Shown here one piece after another: positions 16,378 through 43,353 of a stretch of 52,393 bases of DNA. The position numbers and the translations under genes are program-made. The stretch lies in IMG/VR virus record IMGVR_UViG_3300048999_000021, positions 1-52,393 of that record, one strand, 5' to 3'. The stretch is from a virus (Duplodnaviria; Caudoviricetes). Position 1 is the first letter of the stretch; every line of letters begins with the position of its first letter. Under the pieces are notes generated by a model. The model was not told the DNA's origin. It ran no database searches and saw only the letters and a list, made by a program, of their open reading frames with translations.

Positions 16378-16401
16378 TCCCGACTCTCCCTCTGTTGGTT
16401 G

Positions 16402-17310: not shown

Positions 17311-17326
17311 AGCCCGACTCCGATCT

Positions 17327-17344
17327 GGCGGACCCTCATCCGCC
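17327..17344 (-). promoter_or_regulatory. Leader hairpin with UGAGGG loop (copy 5)
   Basis: GGCGGA-TGAGGG-TCCGCC, then GAGTCGGG at 17313-17320. Confidence 0.8.
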
Positions 17345-17353
17345 GATATACAT

Positions 17354-36751: not shown

Positions 36752-36792
36752 ACGTTACTCCAAATTCAAAAACATGGACACTTTGTTGTCAA
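36752..36792 (-). promoter_or_regulatory. AT-rich promoter region
   Basis: TTGACA at 36787-36792 and TGTCCA-N17-TAACGT, with TGGAG before the -10 as in the 38.9 and 40.5 kb promoters. Confidence 0.6.
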
Positions 36793-36806
36793 GAAAATAT
36801 GGCGAG

Positions 36807-38681
36807 CTAATCCGCCTTGCGACCGGATAGGAGCGCCCGAACCACCTCGACTCCGCGCCTCTCATCCAGCCAGGACCGGGTGTCCTTGTCGCGCATAGAC
36901 GTCGTCCGGGCTATGCCCTCCTCGATTGTGCCGAGCGAGTGCAGGTACCAGACTGTCTTGGCCCGAGCCTCGCCGGTCGTGTTGTCGATACGAAACTCAA
37001 GCTGGACCTGATCATCGGGTATCCATGTCTCATCGATGATGAATATTTCGTCAGCGGCGTTGAGCTCGATCCCGACACCGCCGGTCTTGGTCTGCAGCAG
37101 CAGCACCCGGGCCGCAGGCACGGTCTGGAACTCCTCGATGATCCAGGCGCGATCCTTGTTTGGCACGGCGCCCGTCAGGACGAGATGCGGAATGCCTGCC
37201 ATCTGCGACAGGGTGTGGCTGAGCAGATCTAGCGTCTTCGTCGACTGCGACGCGATCACGATCTTGGAGTCACCTTCCGGGCTCTCGGCCGGCGAGCGGA
37301 TACCGCGCTCCTCCAGCGCACCGAGCAGGTAGTCGACCTTGTTGGACGGTAGCTCGGCCCAGACGTCCTCGCCGTTTGTGTCGAGGTGGTGGTTAGCAAA
37401 CTGCTTCGCCCGGGTCATCTCCGCCAACACGCCGTTCGCCGATAGTTCGCCCGACCCGAGGTCGATCGTCGCCGACTTCGCGAACCGCTCATAGGCTGTC
37501 TTTTGCTTCCCTTCCATCGGCAACCACACCGCGACGGGCGAGCTGGGATCGCTCGGGTCTAGGGGCTCTCCGCCGTACATCCGCGCGGGTAGCTCGGGCC
37601 GGACCTCGGCGGTCGTCCGTCGCAGCATCATCCGGCTCAGCTCCGCCTCCAGCGCCTCCTCGACGCCGGGCAGCTGCTCGCCGATCTCCAGGCCGTAGCC
37701 ACCCTCGATCACGTCCCAGTACTGCTTGATCCAAAACCACTTGCTCGCGTAGAGGTCGGGCCGGAGCCAGTTGAACGTGCCCCAGTAGTTCTGGTTGTTG
37801 CCTCGGGCCGGCGTCCCCGTGAGACAGAAGCGGAATGCCGTGGGGTTGAGCTTCGCGAGATGGACCATGCCCTGCCGGTTGGCTGACATCTTGAGCGTGT
37901 TGGGACCAATCAGGACCTCTTGCGACTCGTCGCAGATCATGCCTTCGAACAGCGCCGGATCGTGGAGAGCCGGATAGTCCGGCGGCAGCAGCTGCACCTC
38001 GCCGGACTTCTCCGTCTTGCGGATGCGCAGCATGGCCGGGTTGGCAAGGATGAATGTGAAGGAGTCGGGGTACTTGATCGAGTACTCGAACGCAGCGGAG
38101 ATCGTTTCCTCGCGCTTGGCGCGGACACCGACAGCCGCAAATGCAGCCCCCAGCCCCGGTAGCCAGCGCGCAATCTGCCGGGCCCACACCGTTTCCAGGG
38201 TGGTAGCGGGCGCGCTGACCAGGTACAGGCCCGGACGGTTGTTCTCGACCACAGCGGCGAGCGCCTGGATCGTCTTGCCGAGCCGTGGCTCATCCGCGAG
38301 GAGCGAGGCCTGCGCCGAGACCAGGTACTTGACGCCTATCGTCTGGTATGGACGGAGCGCGGCGTACAGCTCCGGAGCGAGGCGCGGCAGGTTCTCCAGC
38401 TCGACGCTGTCCCGGCGAGACAGGTCAACGAGCTCGGCGGTTCGCTCCTTCTCGCCGCGCGCCCACTCGGCCAGCTCCGGTCCGATCTCCAGCGCGTCGC
38501 CGAACACCGCGCGTAGCTTCAAGCACACGGACCAATCGAGCGGATAGTTCCACGTCTTCGTGCTCGGCGCCCAACGGGCGCCTGGTACGCGCTTCGCGTA
38601 GACCGGGCCGTCCCCGTTGGCGTACGGGATGCGGGCGACAATCCGTCGCCCGTCCCGCTCGATCGAAACCGTCCCTCGCAT
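36807..38681 (-). CDS. SNF2-family helicase
   Basis: LRPYQ, LADEPRLGKT, CDESQ, LTGTP, MLRRT, GGVGIELNAA and Q...RID. Confidence 0.9.
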   Translation of the reverse strand: MRGTVSIERDGRRIVARIPYANGDGPVYAKRVPGARWAPSTKTWNYPLDWSVCLKLRAVFGDALEIGPELAEWARGEKERTAELVDLSRRDSVELENLPRLAPELYAALRPYQTIGVKYLVSAQASLLADEPRLGKTIQALAAVVENNRPGLYLVSAPATTLETVWARQIARWLPGLGAAFAAVGVRAKREETISAAFEYSIKYPDSFTFILANPAMLRIRKTEKSGEVQLLPPDYPALHDPALFEGMICDESQEVLIGPNTLKMSANRQGMVHLAKLNPTAFRFCLTGTPARGNNQNYWGTFNWLRPDLYASKWFWIKQYWDVIEGGYGLEIGEQLPGVEEALEAELSRMMLRRTTAEVRPELPARMYGGEPLDPSDPSSPVAVWLPMEGKQKTAYERFAKSATIDLGSGELSANGVLAEMTRAKQFANHHLDTNGEDVWAELPSNKVDYLLGALEERGIRSPAESPEGDSKIVIASQSTKTLDLLSHTLSQMAGIPHLVLTGAVPNKDRAWIIEEFQTVPAARVLLLQTKTGGVGIELNAADEIFIIDETWIPDDQVQLEFRIDNTTGEARAKTVWYLHSLGTIEEGIARTTSMRDKDTRSWLDERRGVEVVRALLSGRKAD

Positions 38682-38682
38682 G

Positions 38683-38862
38683 TCAGCGCTCGTTCCAGCT
38701 CTCGACGGCGAACGGGTCAGACTCCGTCACCACGGCCTCCTCCACGCTCACCAGCAGCGAGATCCGGTCAGCCGACATCTCTGCCTCGGCATAGCTGTCG
38801 AAGTCGTGGTCCAAGTTGCGATAGGTCGACTCGCCTGCGTAGCGGTACTCGACTCCGAACAT
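38683..38862 (-). CDS. Small acidic hypothetical protein
   Basis: GGGAG RBS, ATG 38862, 59 aa. Confidence 0.6.
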   Translation of the reverse strand: MFGVEYRYAGESTYRNLDHDFDSYAEAEMSADRISLLVSVEEAVVTESDPFAVESWNER

Positions 38863-38881
38863 GTCTGCTCCCGGCTCTCGG

Positions 38882-38899
38882 GCGGGACCCTCATCCCGC
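38882..38899 (-). promoter_or_regulatory. Leader hairpin with UGAGGG loop (copy 3)
   Basis: GCGGGA-TGAGGG-TCCCGC, then GAGCCGGGA at 38869-38877. Confidence 0.8.
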
Positions 38900-38908
38900 G
38901 TAGCACAG

Positions 38909-38937
38909 ACGCTACTCCACATACTTTGCATTGGCTA
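38909..38937 (-). promoter_or_regulatory. SigA-like promoter
   Basis: TAGCCA-N17-TAGCGT. Confidence 0.6.
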
Positions 38938-39690
38938 GCGGACCTGCACCAGCGCGTCGAGGAACAGCGCCCGGTATCCCTCGCCCGACTCGTCGCAGAA
39001 CGACAAGATCCGCCGGCCTAGCGTGTCCTCAGCCTTTGAGTTGGTGATGAAGGTGGAAGTGTCAGAGACTGTCTTGAAACCTTCCTTGGTCTTGATCTCG
39101 CGAAGCTCAGCCGGCACCCGACCCTCCTCGTACGCGTTCGACATCGAGTTGCGCCACACCAGCTTGCGGCCTCTGATCTTGGCCAGCACGGTGGCGTCAT
39201 CAGCGGTCAAAGGATCGAATGGGACCTTCTGGGTCAGCTGGCGTACGGCAGCCTGGGCCACGCCGACCGGGCGCCGAGTGCTCATCGGAGCGTTCTCGAT
39301 CGCGGTCTGGCTGAGGATCTTCCGGCCCTCGCTCGCGTTGCGGACGTTGCGCGCGTGCTTGGCAGCCTCGTAGCGACCGGGATAGACGAACTGGTCGTTG
39401 GACGCCCAGCTCAGCTCCAGCGCCTCCGTCCCGCGCCGAGCGAGCACCGTCTTTCGCTTGGTCTTCGGATCGCGGATCTTCTCCACGGTCCACCCGGCCG
39501 CCTCTGCATCATCGGCGAACCGGCGTGGCTTGCTCGGAGTGGCGGACTGGCTCGCGCTCGCCATGGGCGCGGCGATCTCGTCCTTGGCTCGGTTCTTCGG
39601 CAGCTTCGAGGTCGCGTTGTTGGCTGCGTGTCTCTCGCTGAGTGCGGCCGCGCGGCGGCGACCTGCACCCTTGACTGTGGTTGTGGCCAT
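38935..39690 (-). CDS. Basic early hypothetical protein
   Basis: AAGGA RBS; 251 aa; PFD...D..VL..IRGRKLVWRN...LDALVQV C-terminal domain. Confidence 0.7.
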   Translation of the reverse strand: MATTTVKGAGRRRAAALSERHAANNATSKLPKNRAKDEIAAPMASASQSATPSKPRRFADDAEAAGWTVEKIRDPKTKRKTVLARRGTEALELSWASNDQFVYPGRYEAAKHARNVRNASEGRKILSQTAIENAPMSTRRPVGVAQAAVRQLTQKVPFDPLTADDATVLAKIRGRKLVWRNSMSNAYEEGRVPAELREIKTKEGFKTVSDTSTFITNSKAEDTLGRRILSFCDESGEGYRALFLDALVQVR

Positions 39691-39708
39691 GTTGGTTCCT
39701 TCCCGACT

Positions 39709-39724
39709 CCCGGCCCTCACCGGA
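39709..39724 (-). promoter_or_regulatory. Leader hairpin with UGAGGG loop (copy 2)
   Basis: TCCGG-TGAGGG-CCGGG abutting GAGTCGGGA at 39701-39709. Confidence 0.75.
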
Positions 39725-39731
39725 TGGATGG

Positions 39732-39760
39732 AGCCTACCGCCCGAGGCGACGGTAGGCTA
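39732..39760 (-). promoter_or_regulatory. SigA-like promoter within an inverted repeat
   Basis: TAGCCT-N17-TAGGCT; arms AGCCTACCG/CGGTAGGCT. Confidence 0.55.
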
Positions 39761-39923
39761 CCTGACCTTGCCGCCAGATCCAGCGGAGCGTCAAACCTGT
39801 GTAGATCACAGCGTAGACGATGCCCGTGATCAGAGCTCCGATAACCCAGCCGATGAGAGCCAGCCAGAACGGCGCTACGTATTCTGGCTGGCCGCCACGG
39901 ATGATGATGGGCAGGGTTACCAC
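39735..39923 (-). CDS. Small membrane protein
   Basis: Long hydrophobic stretch FWLALIGWVIGALITGIVYAVIY. Confidence 0.6.
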   Translation of the reverse strand: MVTLPIIIRGGQPEYVAPFWLALIGWVIGALITGIVYAVIYTGLTLRWIWRQGQVAYRRLGR

Positions 39924-40465
39924 CCCACCTTCGACGCGCAGACCGGGCCGATACCGCGCTGGATTGACTCAGCGTCGGTGAGCGTCCGGTTGCAGATCCC
40001 GCAGCGTCCGAGCTGGTGGCCGTAGGCGATCGCAGCCTGCTTCGCGTCGAACGCGATCGCAGTCAGGATCGTCGCGGCCTTGCTCAAGCTCTTGACCGGG
40101 TGGAAGTCGTCCGAGGCCTGGACCTTGACGAACGTGTAGCCCTTCCAGCGCCCGTCCTGCGGACGATCGATCTTGTAGAAGCGCCACACCTTCTCAGTCG
40201 AGCCGGCGAACTCGCCGAGCTTCATTTCTTCGATCGCGTAGTACGCGGTCGCTACGTTCGGCAGCGAGCGAGCGGCTGCGCGGATCTCGTCGACAGGCGA
40301 GGGACGGTGCTCGCGGACCGGCGCGGCGGGCAGGCGACTCGCGCCTGGGGCGTCATAGACCTGGGGCAGTTCGGCGTTCGGGAGCTTGCCCGAGTTGCCG
40401 TAGCACTGCTTCACGCCCGCGCTGTTCTCGTGGTAGTCCTTGCAGTTTCCGCATTTGACGGCCAT
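39917..40465 (-). CDS. DUF6011-like zinc-binding protein
   Basis: YG...GRCGICNRTLTD.ESI.RGIGPVCA C-terminus and an N-terminal CGNC...H...C. Confidence 0.85.
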   Translation of the reverse strand: MAVKCGNCKDYHENSAGVKQCYGNSGKLPNAELPQVYDAPGASRLPAAPVREHRPSPVDEIRAAARSLPNVATAYYAIEEMKLGEFAGSTEKVWRFYKIDRPQDGRWKGYTFVKVQASDDFHPVKSLSKAATILTAIAFDAKQAAIAYGHQLGRCGICNRTLTDAESIQRGIGPVCASKVGW

Positions 40466-40492
40466 GTCTGCTGGCCCCTTCCCGACTCGTGC

Positions 40493-40510
40493 GCCGGACC
40501 CTCATCCGGC
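40493..40510 (-). promoter_or_regulatory. Leader hairpin with UGAGGG loop (copy 1)
   Basis: GCCGGA-TGAGGG-TCCGGC, then GAGTCGGGA at 40480-40488. Confidence 0.8.
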
Positions 40511-40522
40511 TTCGTAGCTCCG

Positions 40523-40550
40523 ACTGTACTCCAGCAACTATGCATATCAA
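40523..40550 (-). promoter_or_regulatory. Promoter at the start of the early region
   Basis: TTGATA-N16-TACAGT. Confidence 0.65.
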
Positions 40551-40559
40551 AATAGGTGC

Positions 40560-40680
40560 GGGCCGGACCCCTCAGCTTCAGCGGTGAGGGACCACTGTGG
40601 ACGGTAAGCTGAGAGATCCGGCCCAGATCAGGAGAGGTGAGCGGGAGGAGTCGGGAACTCAACCGACTCACACCCTCCTG
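40560..40680 (-). ncRNA. Two-hairpin structured RNA / late-operon terminator after the holin
   Basis: Hairpin A 40629-40680. Hairpin B 40560-40624 has 19-bp and 7-bp stems whose G-U pairs work only on the minus strand, followed by UAUUUU. Confidence 0.65.
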
Positions 40681-40690
40681 CGTCGAGATC

Positions 40691-41152
40691 TTACCCGTTC
40701 GGCGGAGGCGCTGAAACGGGCTTGGGGAACGTTGACAGCGCGGCGCTAAGCGGGGTTTTCTTCCACAGACCGATCCGCCCGGCGATCGCAACGGCCAGCG
40801 AGACGCCGGCCAGCACCAAGGCCTTCTTCCAGTCATAGTGCGAGGCGTCGGACGTGTTCGCCCACTCGGTTAGGAACCCGTTCGCAGTCGCCAACACCAA
40901 CGTGATATAGCCCTCTACCGTCTGACTCCAATGCGGTAGAGAGACCAGCGCCGAGACCAGCGGCATGAAGTACGAGATAGCCACGGCTAGCACAGTCGCC
41001 GTTGAGAGCGGGATGCCGAGGATGGACGGCTGGTTGACCGTCGCGAGCGCTACGGCGTGCGTGGCCGCGAACACCGACTGAATTGGGGCCAGTGTGAAGC
41101 ACGCGAACAGGAACGCCGCGAAGCCGAGCACGACCGCCAGCCGGCGTCTCAC
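40691..41152 (-). CDS. Holin-like membrane protein
   Basis: GTG 41152 overlaps the lysin stop (GTGA); about 4 hydrophobic segments; P.VSALVS...LA.ANGFL.EW. Confidence 0.75.
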   Translation of the reverse strand: MRRRLAVVLGFAAFLFACFTLAPIQSVFAATHAVALATVNQPSILGIPLSTATVLAVAISYFMPLVSALVSLPHWSQTVEGYITLVLATANGFLTEWANTSDASHYDWKKALVLAGVSLAVAIAGRIGLWKKTPLSAALSTFPKPVSAPPPNG

Positions 41153-42060
41153 GACGCACCCAGCTTCGCTTCGATCCGCGCCAGCGTGGCCTCCAGCGAG
41201 TCCACCCGGTCGTAGATCGCATCGATATTTTTGGGGTGGGTGACGGTGACCTTGCCTTTGGCGTCCGGGATACCGCCGTGCAGCACCACCTGGATGTCTT
41301 CGTGGATGCTCTGTGCGTCTGCCATCGAAAGTCCTCCTGGCTCTGGTTTGACTGTGCCGCCTAGGAACAGCGCTTGTAGTTGTTTGACCCCGGTCACCCG
41401 GATCGCGTTCGCGTCGGCAGGGGACTGGCCGGCGATAGTCGCGCTGGAGGTGAACTGCCCGACCGTCGGCGCGATCCCGGAGTAAGGGTTCCAGATCGAG
41501 CCCTTGTCCCCAGGATACAGACGTTGCGGGCTGCCCTGCCCGTTTACGTAGTGCGACGCCCACAGGTTGCGGTACTTCAGGCCTCTGAGCTGCCCGCCAT
41601 ACAGCCACTCTGGAGCGTACACCGTAACCTGGCTGGGTTTGCAGTGCGCCCGGGTCACGATCCGGTCCCCGCAGGCGTTGATCTCGGCCACGGTCGGTGC
41701 ACGGTACGGGCTAAATTCCTGGAACAGCTCAGCGTCGATCTGCCAAACCCAGCATGGGTGGCTGCCCCACCACGGCGCGACGCGGTTGACCGTGTTAAAC
41801 CAGAAGTCGGCCTGTGCGGCCGGGTTGTTCGGCCACAGGACGTGGTATCCGCCCAGCACCGTGAATCTGACCGGCCGAGCCCGGTTCATCGCGTCGTCGA
41901 AGTAAGGGTCTACGAACGTCGATCCCTCGGTGGACTTGTGGGTGAACAGCTCGATACCCTCGCGCTTGGCTCGGGCCAGGTCCATCTTACCCCGGGGCCA
42001 GTCGTGGTTGCTGGCGTCCCAGCCGTATTCAGTCACCGGCCTCGTCCGATGCTTTGGCAT
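41149..42060 (-). CDS. Endolysin, GH25 muramidase
   Basis: GWDASNHD, KSTEG...DP.F, GGYH, IDAE, LWASHY, QFTS and DAN. The start may be GTG 42036. Confidence 0.9.
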   Translation of the reverse strand: MPKHRTRPVTEYGWDASNHDWPRGKMDLARAKREGIELFTHKSTEGSTFVDPYFDDAMNRARPVRFTVLGGYHVLWPNNPAAQADFWFNTVNRVAPWWGSHPCWVWQIDAELFQEFSPYRAPTVAEINACGDRIVTRAHCKPSQVTVYAPEWLYGGQLRGLKYRNLWASHYVNGQGSPQRLYPGDKGSIWNPYSGIAPTVGQFTSSATIAGQSPADANAIRVTGVKQLQALFLGGTVKPEPGGLSMADAQSIHEDIQVVLHGGIPDAKGKVTVTHPKNIDAIYDRVDSLEATLARIEAKLGAS

Positions 42061-42220
42061 CTCCTCCTGTCGCGATCCGCTCTAGGCGTCGCGCTGTCTC
42101 GCGCAGCTTTTCAGCCACGAGCCCTAGATCCTCCGGGTGAATCTCGTTGGGCCTCTCTGGATCCAGATGGTCAGCGACATCCTGCAATTGCCTGGCGTCG
42201 CCCGCTGCTGTTTGCATCAT
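42029..42220 (-). CDS. Small hypothetical protein
   Basis: GGGAG RBS; 63 aa filling the gap before the lysin. Confidence 0.55.
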   Translation of the reverse strand: MMQTAAGDARQLQDVADHLDPERPNEIHPEDLGLVAEKLRETARRLERIATGGDAKASDEAGD

Positions 42221-42230
42221 GAGCTCCCGA

Positions 42231-42956
42231 CTACTGTTGAGTTACGACACACGTATCGTACTTCTTGGCGTCCGTATTCCAAGGGCAGTGAACGTGGTAA
42301 GCGTGGTCTGTGTCCAGCGGGCCAGCGGCTGGCACCGTGAAATCGAAGTCAATGTCAGTTGGCGGTGGCCCTTCTGGCCCCGTCGGTCCCTGGTCACCCT
42401 TCGGGCCTTGGTCGCCTGGGGCTCCTGGCAGTCCTGGATCTCCGGGTATCCCCTGAGCTCCTGCAGCCCCGCTAGCGCCTGGCGCTCCTGGGCCGCCGCT
42501 ATCCCCTGCGGCGCCCGAGGCTCCATCGGCTCCGGCAGGCCCGGGGCTGCCCTGTGGGCCTTGCGGCCCTGGCAGTCCTGGAGGGCCAGCGGGTCCGCGT
42601 GGGCCGGGGATGCCGGCCGCCCCGGTCGGTCCTGGCAGAGGTACGGGGGTTGCCGTCGCGAGCTGCGAAGCTCGGGTGCAGAAGCCGGGATGCTGCGCCT
42701 GGAAGGAAGTGGATTGGCAGAGCTGGTTGATGCCCTTGGCCAAGTCGACACCTTGCGTCACGAGCGGAGCCTGCGCTGAGATTGTGGCCTCTGCTGACTT
42801 CTTGCCCTTCGCATTGTCATTGCTCTGGTCCGACTTATGAGCAAACTGAAGCTGCGAGATGACGATGTAGGCCACCACCAGCACAGCCACTATCCCGCTC
42901 ACTATCAGAGCGCTGTCTACTCGATTTGACTTGCCCTCAAGATGATTGGCCATCAC
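42231..42956 (-). CDS. Membrane-anchored collagen-like protein
   Basis: N-terminal TM, a Cys pair, 30 consecutive G-X-Y triplets, and a C-terminal Cys pair. Confidence 0.85.
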
Positions 42957-43302
42957 TCACCGCCTCCTCCCGCATCTGCCGTATCTCGGCTTCCAGACGC
43001 GTTATCTTCTGGCCTAGCTCAGCAATGCGTTCAGTAAGATCCTGCACGGTCTGTGCAAGTCCAGCCGACTGAGCCCGGGAGACAGCGGCATCTTCTTCGG
43101 CTGCATATTGAGCGCGCCGCGCGCTCGACAGCTTGTCCTCCAGCTCAGCCCGCTCAGCCCGAAGGCTGGCAATGCGCTCCTCGTAGCCCTTGACCTGGCC
43201 GGTCCTGGTACGGTCTGACGACGCGTTAATCCTGATCCAGAACGCAACCGCAACCAACAACGCTCCGCCAATGATGATGGTGGGAGCCTGCTCCACAACC
43301 AT
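42937..43302 (-). CDS. Membrane protein with coiled coil (lysis cassette)
   Basis: N-terminal TM then a heptad coiled coil; the start follows the GAGTCGGGA box. Confidence 0.7.
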
Positions 43303-43353
43303 GTCCCGACTCCCATCGCTCACCATCCCCGTGCTATTAGTCGATCTTATCCG

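Follow-up and report, generated by a model that had tools for sequence, protein, structure and literature searches.

What would an RNA do that folds tightly at the end of a phage lysis operon and carries the complements of two signals placed ahead of other genes of the same phage? The question is raised by a module of two minus-strand hairpins, A and B, at 40680-40560 of a complete IMG/VR virus record (52,393 bp, 63% GC, direct terminal repeats); that whole stretch is called the window here. An earlier note had read the module as a structured RNA with antisense copies of both leader motifs of this phage, and as a candidate trans-acting regulator. All of its sequence statements and coordinates hold. 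Our analysis confirmed and strengthened this observation, and the interpretation is partly supported. The best single explanation, to which we give slightly less than an even chance, is that an RNA from the 3′ end of the late operon would pair with leaders and ribosome-binding boxes.

The module and the signals that it complements

Hairpin A (40629-40680) is closed by the arms CAGGAGGG/CUCUCCUG and contains the anti-box UUCCCGACUCCUCCC (40643-40657), the complement of GGGAGGAGUCGGGAA, which joins the ribosome-binding GGAG to the box. The sole exact plus-strand copy of the box core GAGTCGGGA in the genome (40648-40656) lies within this anti-box. An internal sense GAGUCGG (40663-40669), absent from the module of the relative L024 described below, is able to mask the anti-box. 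The anti-box, its 13-nt match and the GAGUCGG are as the earlier note drew them, but the lowest-energy fold of hairpin A is longer than drawn, with 21 pairs. Hairpin B (40560-40624) has 26 pairs in 65 nt, 3 of them G-U. An 8-nt bulge (40605-40598) divides its stem into a lower part of 19 bp and an upper part of 7 bp, and CCCUC (40590-40586) forms the loop. The apical anti-loop CCCUC(A) (40585-40590), within GGUCCCUCACCGC, is the complement of the UGAGGG loop that is invariant in five promoter-proximal leader hairpins; both the structure and this complementarity had been described correctly. The 3′ arm of hairpin B hides a sense UGAGGG (40569-40574), and its outer stem GCCGGA/UCCGGC is identical to the stem of the adjacent leader. 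Read 5′ to 3′, the anti-box precedes the anti-loop, which is the order needed for antiparallel pairing to one leader.

The minus strand of the module folds at -79.0 kcal/mol (z -7.1, 0/200 shuffles as good) and the plus strand at -68.8 kcal/mol (z -4.4). In a genome-wide scan of 80-nt segments at a step of 10, the segment with hairpin B has the tied second-lowest energy and, of the four lowest, no other lies in a clear intergenic gap. Among DNA contigs of four sequencing runs, those of run X5 include a diverged relative that spans the module, with one extra A after 40636 among the differences listed.

The first candidate target of the module is a leader unit common to five minus-strand sites, in which promoter-like hexamers (consensus matches only) are followed by a hairpin and then by a box. 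The -35-like hexamers are TTGATA, TAGCCT, TAGCCA, TAGACG and TAGACG; a -10-like TAnnnT follows 16-17 nt past them, the UGAGGG hairpin 8-13 nt later, and the box GAGUCGGGA or a near variant 2-6 nt past the hairpin. The unit adjacent to the module includes a promoter-like site TTGATA-N16-TACAGT (40523-40550), whose -35 element is abutted by a T-run at 40553-40550, the leader hairpin GCCGGA-UGAGGG-UCCGGC (40493-40510), and the box GAGUCGGGA (40480-40488) found by motif scan. The second unit (39699-39726) has CCGG-UGAGGG-CCGG and a box, with TAGCCT-N17-TAGGCT upstream. Alignment of the leaders placed the third at 38866-38900 (GCGGGA-UGAGGG-UCCCGC, box variant GAGCCGGGA), the fourth at 24944-24973 (stem GGUCAGA/UCUGGCC, box GAGUCGGAA) and the fifth at 17312-17345 (GGCGGA-UGAGGG-UCCGCC, box GAGUCGGGC), which heads the block toward the terminase. 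In an alignment of six rows (the five leaders and the plus-strand reading of the hairpin B tip), 83% of the stem cells pair, compared with 63.5% in shuffles (0/500 as high). Both-sided changes occur in 4 of the 6 pairs and the UGAGGG loop does not vary. Such covariation of a stem around an invariant loop is what marks a folded RNA whose loop is recognised.

The second candidate target is the box itself. The exact GAGTCGGGA has 7 minus-strand copies against the 1 plus-strand copy inside hairpin A; with one mismatch allowed there is no enrichment (31 matches vs 23 expected, with at least 31 in 6 of 100 shuffles). Boxes without a hairpin are fused to GGAG and lie 0-3 nt from ATG (43312, 36177, 32109, 30706 and 16386), whereas the copies in leader units stand 11-16 nt ahead of start codons. 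The motif scan gave the fused copies at 43304-43312, abutting a start codon in the late tail region, and at 32101-32109, 30698-30706 and 16378-16386, together with a 1-mismatch box (42225-42233) before a small gene upstream of the endolysin. The best complement of the anti-box is the box fused to the ribosome site in GAGGAGUCGGGAAUG (36168-36180), where it is complementary over 13 nt to GAGGAGUCGGGAA (36180-36168).

We scanned 3484 segments of 135 nt against ten leader and box targets. A 13-nt complementary run was found in only 8 of the 3484, all overlapping the module, and the same 8 were the only ones with runs of at least 9 nt to 8 of the 10 targets; the next-best segments reached one target. 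Minus-strand hairpins with a stem of at least 6 bp and CCCTC in the loop number two genome-wide, namely hairpin B (7 bp) and one within a gene at 20975. The complementarity of the module to leaders and boxes is more than chance, and both antisense motifs reported earlier are real.

Conservation of the module in a diverged relative

A profile of the DUF6011 protein (encoded by the first gene past the module) and its homologues yielded 27 metagenome loci, and the motifs were found in L024 only. The DUF6011 protein also has closer homologues, P0001 (82% identity) and P0002 (70%). Its gene order is a collagen-like tail gene, a lysin, a holin-like open reading frame (ORF), a gap, the DUF6011 gene and, later, a gene for a 248-aa protein. 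Compared with their window counterparts, these proteins are 45% (holin-like), 52% (DUF6011) and 53% (248-aa) identical, and at 45-53% protein identity unconstrained DNA should have been randomised. The L024 gap nevertheless has blocks that match the window: CAGGAG...CUCCUG at the closure of hairpin A, CGGUUG-6 nt-CGACUCC, GGNCCCUCACCGC at the tip of hairpin B, AUUUUGA at the -35 element, CGGAUGAGGGUCCG in the leader and GAGUCG in the box. The number of 7-mers common to both gaps is 19, where 4.7 are expected and 1 of 2000 shuffles gave as many; for the modules alone it is 8, where 1.95 are expected (27 of 2000 shuffles). In both phages CCCTCACCGC stands exactly 100 nt past the holin stop codon.

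Hairpin B has 65 nt and 26 pairs in each phage, with -45.8 kcal/mol in the window and -46.7 kcal/mol in L024. Its 16 basal pairs comprise 6 identical, 4 one-sided and 6 compensatory ones, and none is broken. Each phage has 3 G-U pairs in this hairpin, and the opposite strand folds less well (-36.7 kcal/mol in the window, weaker by 9.1; -43.8 kcal/mol in L024, weaker by 2.9), in line with the earlier assignment of the minus strand as the folding strand. In the apical segment, 12 of the 13 nt of GGUCCCUCACCGC are retained, and the L024 anti-loop is the 7-nt CCCCUCA. The stem of hairpin B is thus kept as a coding-strand RNA structure and its loop as a sequence.

The anti-box changes together with the boxes. 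All six L024 sense boxes are GAGTCGA[AG], each ahead of a plausible start codon, and the window boxes are of the GAGTCGG[GA] type; the single reverse copy of L024 is TTTCGACTCCCCTCC (TTTCGACTC) and its window counterpart is TTCCCGACTCCTCCC. The longer exact anti-box complement is to the boxes of the same phage for 9 of the 11 targets in the window, with 1 tie and 1 reversed case, and for all 6 L024 targets. The earlier note had proposed to look for covariation in related genomes, and the outcome in L024 is in its favour, with the anti-loop kept and an anti-box that tracks the box variant of L024 itself. Several window features are missing in L024, namely the internal GAGUCGG, the 8-nt bulge, and the sense UGAGGG with the leader-like outer stem of hairpin B. 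The L024 anti-box lies in a loosely paired interior, and its core costs 2.5-2.7 kcal/mol to open, compared with 4.7-6.6 kcal/mol in the window. Taken together, the conservation in L024 favours selection on the antisense motifs, beyond the hairpin alone.

Two further observations concern L024. Its lysin (1511-2428) and the window lysin (41149-42060) belong to different families, with the L024 family judged by eye, and the order of holin-like gene, module and DUF6011 gene is unchanged; the pattern suggests that only the lysin was exchanged, in mosaic fashion. At 4686-4711 of L024, two boxes flank UGAGGG (GAGTCGAATGAGGGATGAGTCGAATG) directly before the homologue of the window gene at 39690-38935, an arrangement that corresponds to a compacted variant of the leader unit.

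Proposed pairing and its energetics

Our proposal, held with a little under half of our confidence, is that the tail-lysis (late) transcription unit ends in a conserved stretch of ~130 nt, folded into hairpins A and B, which would act as an anti-leader RNA. The module would be co-transcribed with the late genes, and the 26-bp hairpin B would protect or define the 3′ end and allow the RNA to accumulate. The C-rich open loop of hairpin B would make the first contact with G-rich leader loops or ribosome sites. The anti-box of hairpin A would then pair with box and GGAG over 9-13 bp, at a net energy of about -7 to -15 kcal/mol once opening costs are counted, and this pairing would occlude ribosome binding or create a double-strand cleavage site. 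As a result, box-bearing messages would be dampened in proportion to late transcription, several of them and not just the adjacent one. The effect may be down or up, and the action may be in trans or in cis by read-through. A multi-target mode is somewhat favoured over a cis-only one.

Interaction energies were computed from windowed duplexes and opening costs. The window module gave -4.5 to -16.1 kcal/mol on the ten targets. The mean predicted accessible interaction was -9.1 kcal/mol for 6 box-bearing starts and -3.7 kcal/mol for 49 others (Mann-Whitney p 7.7e-5), and the best of the 49 others was the start with the 1-mismatch box at 42233. The CCCUC loop is unpaired with a probability of 1.0, and the anti-loop is fully open in both phages. 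By these calculations the pairing of module and targets would be feasible, although thermodynamics alone does not make it compelling.

Several points weigh against the pairing of a late RNA with leaders and boxes. In a comparison of own and foreign modules, the energies showed no specificity: window targets averaged -8.4 kcal/mol with their own module and -9.3 kcal/mol with that of L024, and L024 targets averaged -6.7 kcal/mol with their own and -7.8 kcal/mol with the foreign one. The window anti-box is partly buried, at an opening cost of 4.7-10.9 kcal/mol. The window leader loop tends to close to a 4-nt GAGG, with a probability of 0.03 that UGAGGG is unpaired, and the loop-loop kiss proposed by the earlier note is marginal in the window. 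Every hairpin is local in the lowest-energy fold of the whole gap. The covariation case is made of two genomes and two or three positions, and a DNA-binding protein blind to orientation would give the same co-change of box and reverse box. Transcription of the module, its 3′ end and its abundance are inferred only. The nearest published analogue, the start-associated sequences (SAS) of Cluster K mycobacteriophages, is not general in this respect: over the 49 kb of the K3 phage Pixie that were scanned (12000-61000), 17-18 copies are forward and none is reverse.

The "early-gene shut-off" suggested earlier also proved too specific. The leader at 17345-17312 lies upstream of the terminase, and box sites precede late genes at 43312, 42233 and 16386. 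One leader heads the terminase block and tail and lysis genes also have boxes ahead of them, so that the system takes in more than early genes; boxes before late genes and on the late block's own leader do not lead to a simple early-to-late switch, and this too counts against the proposal.

Alternative explanations

A purely structural 3′-end element, whose antisense motifs have no pairing function, is a possible but less probable explanation. Such an element would stop or pause the polymerase, block 3′ exonucleases or be cut by a double-strand RNase, and would insulate the late unit from the early promoter; its motifs would be remnants of inverted or direct leader duplication, or the C-rich partners of G-rich stems. 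The module stands after the last late gene and directly ahead of a promoter-like site, and, as expected of a terminator, hairpin B is GC-rich, stable and placed where a transcription unit ends. Plain hairpins occur at the same junction in other DUF6011-bearing phages, as judged by eye (a stem and T-run in L046, hairpins in L028 and L048), and hairpins with a T-run are used elsewhere in the window genome, at 36816-36801 and about 15300. In hairpin B of the window, the outer stem and the 3′ arm are a repeat of the leader hairpin next to it together with the GCAC that follows, which gives the look of a local duplication; the sense copy in hairpin B is not conserved, so that this look is specific to the window. 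In L024 the stems have fully diverged and the loop and anti-box are best kept, the opposite of what a sequence-blind hairpin predicts. Since loop and anti-box are the conserved parts, a sequence-blind role of hairpin B leaves their conservation unexplained.

The flanking sequence bears on the same point. An intrinsic terminator has a U-tract of 7-9 nt directly 3′ of the stem, with at least 3 U adjoining it (PMC3993855), and hairpin B lacks this in both phages. The sequence right after it in the window is GCACCUAUUUUG, where Ts begin 6 nt past the stem, and the first U-run in L024 comes ~20 nt past hairpin B. The Ts past hairpin B are a conserved border on the upstream side of the -35 hexamer. 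The terminator scan listed the hairpin and T-run at 36816-36801 and did not list the module site. With no U-tract next to it in either phage, hairpin B is not a canonical terminator. In one study, termination by mycobacterial RNA polymerase in vitro depended on a U-tract (PMC3993855), whereas in another, based on RNA-seq, hairpin clusters without U-tails are proposed as terminators (PMC8355165), which would fit the structural explanation. Hairpin B may in either case end or protect the late RNA.

It is improbable that the box and the UGAGGG element are duplex DNA sites of a phage regulator that binds in either orientation. The module and the adjacent leader would then be a cluster of four sites that flank the first early promoter, for operator or looping functions. 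By our reading the promoter has, in each phage, reverse copies at roughly symmetrical positions on its two sides, and the co-change of box and reverse box is equally expected if the protein co-evolves with its sites. DNA-binding proteins are also what the authors favour for the extended start-associated repeats of Cluster K (PMC3203893). The invariant loop and covarying arms of the leaders, however, point to a folded single strand and not to a duplex protein site, the G-U pairs of hairpin B are strand-specific in both phages, and at start codons the boxes are joined directly to ribosome sites. In addition, a scan of the 36 ORFs within 13518-45579 revealed no helix-turn-helix or other DNA-binding family.

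Still less likely is an action in cis only, which the earlier note had considered, by which late read-through past hairpin B would fold, sequester the DUF6011 leader and leave the first early gene untranslated. The module adjoins that leader in both phages, and no canonical terminator lies between them. Against this, the adjacent leader is among the poorer anti-box matches and boxes elsewhere match better (10 vs 13 nt in the window, 7 vs 9 nt in L024), and the whole-gap fold has no such long-range helix except a 7-bp UCUCGAC/GUCGGGA contact that is not in L024. The idea that the region is transcribed from the plus strand as another sense leader, which the earlier note had named as fatal to its proposal, is very unlikely indeed: a UGAGGG-loop hairpin followed by GAGGAGUCGGGAA on that strand does have the order of a leader, but there is no plus-strand promoter-like site in 36000-45000, the box has no start codon after it and no conserved ORF (the window has an ORF of 50 aa, L024 an unrelated frame of 187 aa), hairpin and box are 57 nt apart and not 2-6 nt, the fold is weaker with A-C mismatches in place of the minus-strand G-U pairs, and the recognisable genes are all on the minus strand.

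Comparison with known systems

The closest likeness to the pairing of a late RNA with start boxes is found in the SAS and extended SAS (ESAS) of Cluster K. The SAS is a 13-bp motif at the start codons of 11-19 genes, in one orientation (PMC3203893). About half of the copies have an upstream inverted repeat, which was later found to hold promoters (PMC11373665). Their function is still termed ill-defined (PMC3203893; PMC11373665; PMC12699233). Pope et al. report that each of four K1 phages has one reverse site away from gene starts, and find little support for RNA pairing of the extended SAS (PMC3203893). Both systems have a private, asymmetric motif with GGAG a few bases before the starts of a subset of genes. 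In the window, five copies lie 0-3 nt from ATG and overlap the ribosome site; there are 7 sense copies and 1 reverse copy, and L024 has 6 sense GAGTCGA copies and 1 reverse copy. The five leader units have aligned -35/-10-like hexamers and then a hairpin, the counterpart of the upstream repeat with its promoter. The motif differs, however, being GAGTCGGGA here and the 13-bp consensus GGGATAGGAGCCC there, so that the window system is an analogue and not a member by sequence. The upstream repeat of the window is a covarying RNA hairpin with an invariant loop, and the window has two antisense elements (box and loop), directly after the lysis genes.

In the K1 phage Anaya, we found 16 forward sites and 1 reverse site within 2 mismatches, the reverse one between gp96 and gp97. 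The core of this reverse site, CCUCCUAUCC, is a 10-nt apical loop (probability of being unpaired 0.70) of a hairpin closed by GCGCGG/CCGCGC. The parallel in the reverse copy is real for K1 and is not general. The Anaya hairpin lies at 39840-39915 of our locus L132 (about 59,839-59,914 of the record), near the right end. The gap that holds it has 385 nt, is highly structured (z -7.3) and has a canonical terminator at its beginning.

Small phage RNAs offer a second comparison. The C4 RNA of P1/P7 and the CI RNA of P4 are structured, with exposed segments complementary to two boxes at a ribosome site; they come from the same strand as their targets, are processed from the 5′ leader of the operon that they control and serve immunity. 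The window module likewise has complements of two short boxes at leaders and ribosome sites, and it has no match to the C4 antisense RNA family of Rfam at E up to 1. The actinobacterial 6C RNA and RsaE/RoxS pair through open C-rich loops with the G-rich ribosome-binding regions of several messages without a chaperone. They are chromosomal, free-standing genes, and the 6C loops have six or more Cs; the loops of the window (CCCUC) and L024 (CCCCUCA) are shorter, and there is no Rfam match.

The module is like intrinsic or hairpin-cluster terminators in having GC-rich hairpins ~10-130 nt past the stop codon of the last gene and then the next promoter. It differs from them in that neither phage has a stem-adjacent U-tract, and in that loop and inner strand are kept while the stems drift. 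Lambda nut and HK022 put sites have a conserved-loop hairpin and a linear box just past several promoters. The order of elements and the sequences are unlike those of the window's leader units, and no N-like protein was identified. We know of nothing like an operon-end antisense copy in the nut or put systems.

A limited search of the open-access literature found no proposal of an antisense RNA against start-associated sequences, and the word "antisense" has 0 occurrences in one recent source (PMC12699233). We raise the possibility, which we consider less likely than not, that start-associated motifs of actinobacteriophages are docking sites of a dedicated phage antisense RNA. Each lineage may have a private tag at its ribosome sites, here also a private leader loop, and one structured RNA from the end of the late operon may show the complements and set the translation of the tagged genes. 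A bolder variant is that leader hairpin and box may travel on RNA polymerase and, like nut or put sites, signal antitermination; the antisense module at the end of the operon may then remove them from the polymerase, which would let transcription stop at that point.

Cluster K mycobacteriophages are in use as genetic tools. Repeated start-associated motifs were described in these phages in 2011 (PMC3203893). The window and L024 represent an independent lineage with an SAS-like logic and, in addition, a conserved RNA module antisense to both leader signals, and the question of what reads the motif becomes a concrete hypothesis open to mutation. If a late RNA does pair with the leaders and boxes, one RNA would coordinate about a dozen phage genes through base pairing, in hosts that are not known to have Hfq, and the motif and anti-motif would be a portable, orthogonal translation switch for actinobacteria. 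If the docking or antitermination variant is true, the SAS/ESAS puzzle standing since 2011 would gain a mechanism. If pairing is false, the module would still be a well-defined, conserved, terminator-like element without a U-tract and would bear on how actinobacterial transcription units end.

Genome setting and searches for relatives

All recognisable genes of the window are on the minus strand, as judged from ORFs and from Pfam and PHROG domain scans of the 36 ORFs within 13518-45579. In minus-strand order, the tape measure and tail genes, with a collagen-like fibre (42956-42231), are followed by a GH25 endolysin (42060-41149), a hydrophobic holin-like ORF that ends at 40691, a gap of 225 nt, and the DUF6011 gene (39917-40465), assigned by domain match. 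SNF2 helicase, nuclease, ThyX, Pol III alpha and primase-helicase genes lie downstream of the DUF6011 gene, and past 17345 a block runs to the terminase (15260-13518) and then to head genes. From the gene order on both sides, the gap is the border between the tail-lysis block, which ends there, and the replication genes; the holin-like gene lies on one side of it and the promoter-like site on the other.

The holin-like membrane protein ORF (40691-41152) is the last tail-lysis gene and has 45% identity to the ORF after the lysin of L024. We read its start as the GTG at 41152, which probably overlaps the endolysin stop; its longer form, 40691-41179, had no match in Pfam and PHROG searches. The label "holin" is based on its place after the GH25 endolysin, its hydrophobic segments and the L024 homologue. 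Two frames in the gap, 141 aa on the minus strand and 50 aa on the plus strand, were rejected as genes and have no counterpart in L024.

No cultured phage is close. The best GenBank match has 68% nucleotide identity over 277 nt, in the DUF6011 gene of Cluster B mycobacteriophages; matches to GenBank phages are weak and at the level of genes, and the gap itself has no match even at E up to 1. Protein and pattern searches of IMG/VR gave distant phages only, with the motifs absent in the loci checked, among them L003-L023 and 3 of the 7 loci from a further search. The viral leader-pattern matches L022/L023 (= L058/L059) have a 3-bp stem only and are chance-like. A first metagenome pattern scan gave no match, and in prokaryote genomes 74 motif matches were found at 72 loci, all lacking the upstream module features; L112 and L122 are leader-like in look, with a single copy each. 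In Rfam there was no gathering-level match in the whole window or L024, and relaxed searches gave nothing relevant at E up to 1 (36000-44000) or at E up to 10 (L024 2600-3100). A lysM-Actino match inside the helicase gene (29 bits, against a gathering threshold of 153.8) was rejected. The sequencing runs in which the stretch occurs are labelled soil metagenome, and none of those on record is of RNA type.

Other structured sites of the window

Several other minus-strand sites of the window are structured. Directly past the SNF2 helicase gene, 36816-36710 has a short hairpin with a T-run (GGCGGATTAGCTCGCC ATATTTTCTT) and next an AT-rich stretch with TTGACA-N17-TTGAAT, a canonical-looking terminator and promoter, unlike the module. 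At about 15330-15270, just ahead of the large terminase gene, TTTGCG comes after a perfect hairpin of 12 bp, GGAGCCCTGCCG...CGGCAGGGCTCC. Two neighbouring hairpins at 32203-32124 precede the box-type start at 32109-32101; this gap too is structured, and it lacks an antisense motif. Past the AAA_25 primase-helicase gene, the gap at 19109-18978 has a long hairpin and three copies of GGTCGAACTGAA (19057, 19004 and 18989), which are iteron-like and may mark a replication origin or a set of operators. The position just before the start of a tape-measure gene is the usual place of tail-chaperone frameshift signals. Immediately ahead of the tape-measure start in the window, at 51673-51594, lies a very stable hairpin, GAGACCCCGGCCACGGG...CTCGTGGTCGGGGCTC.

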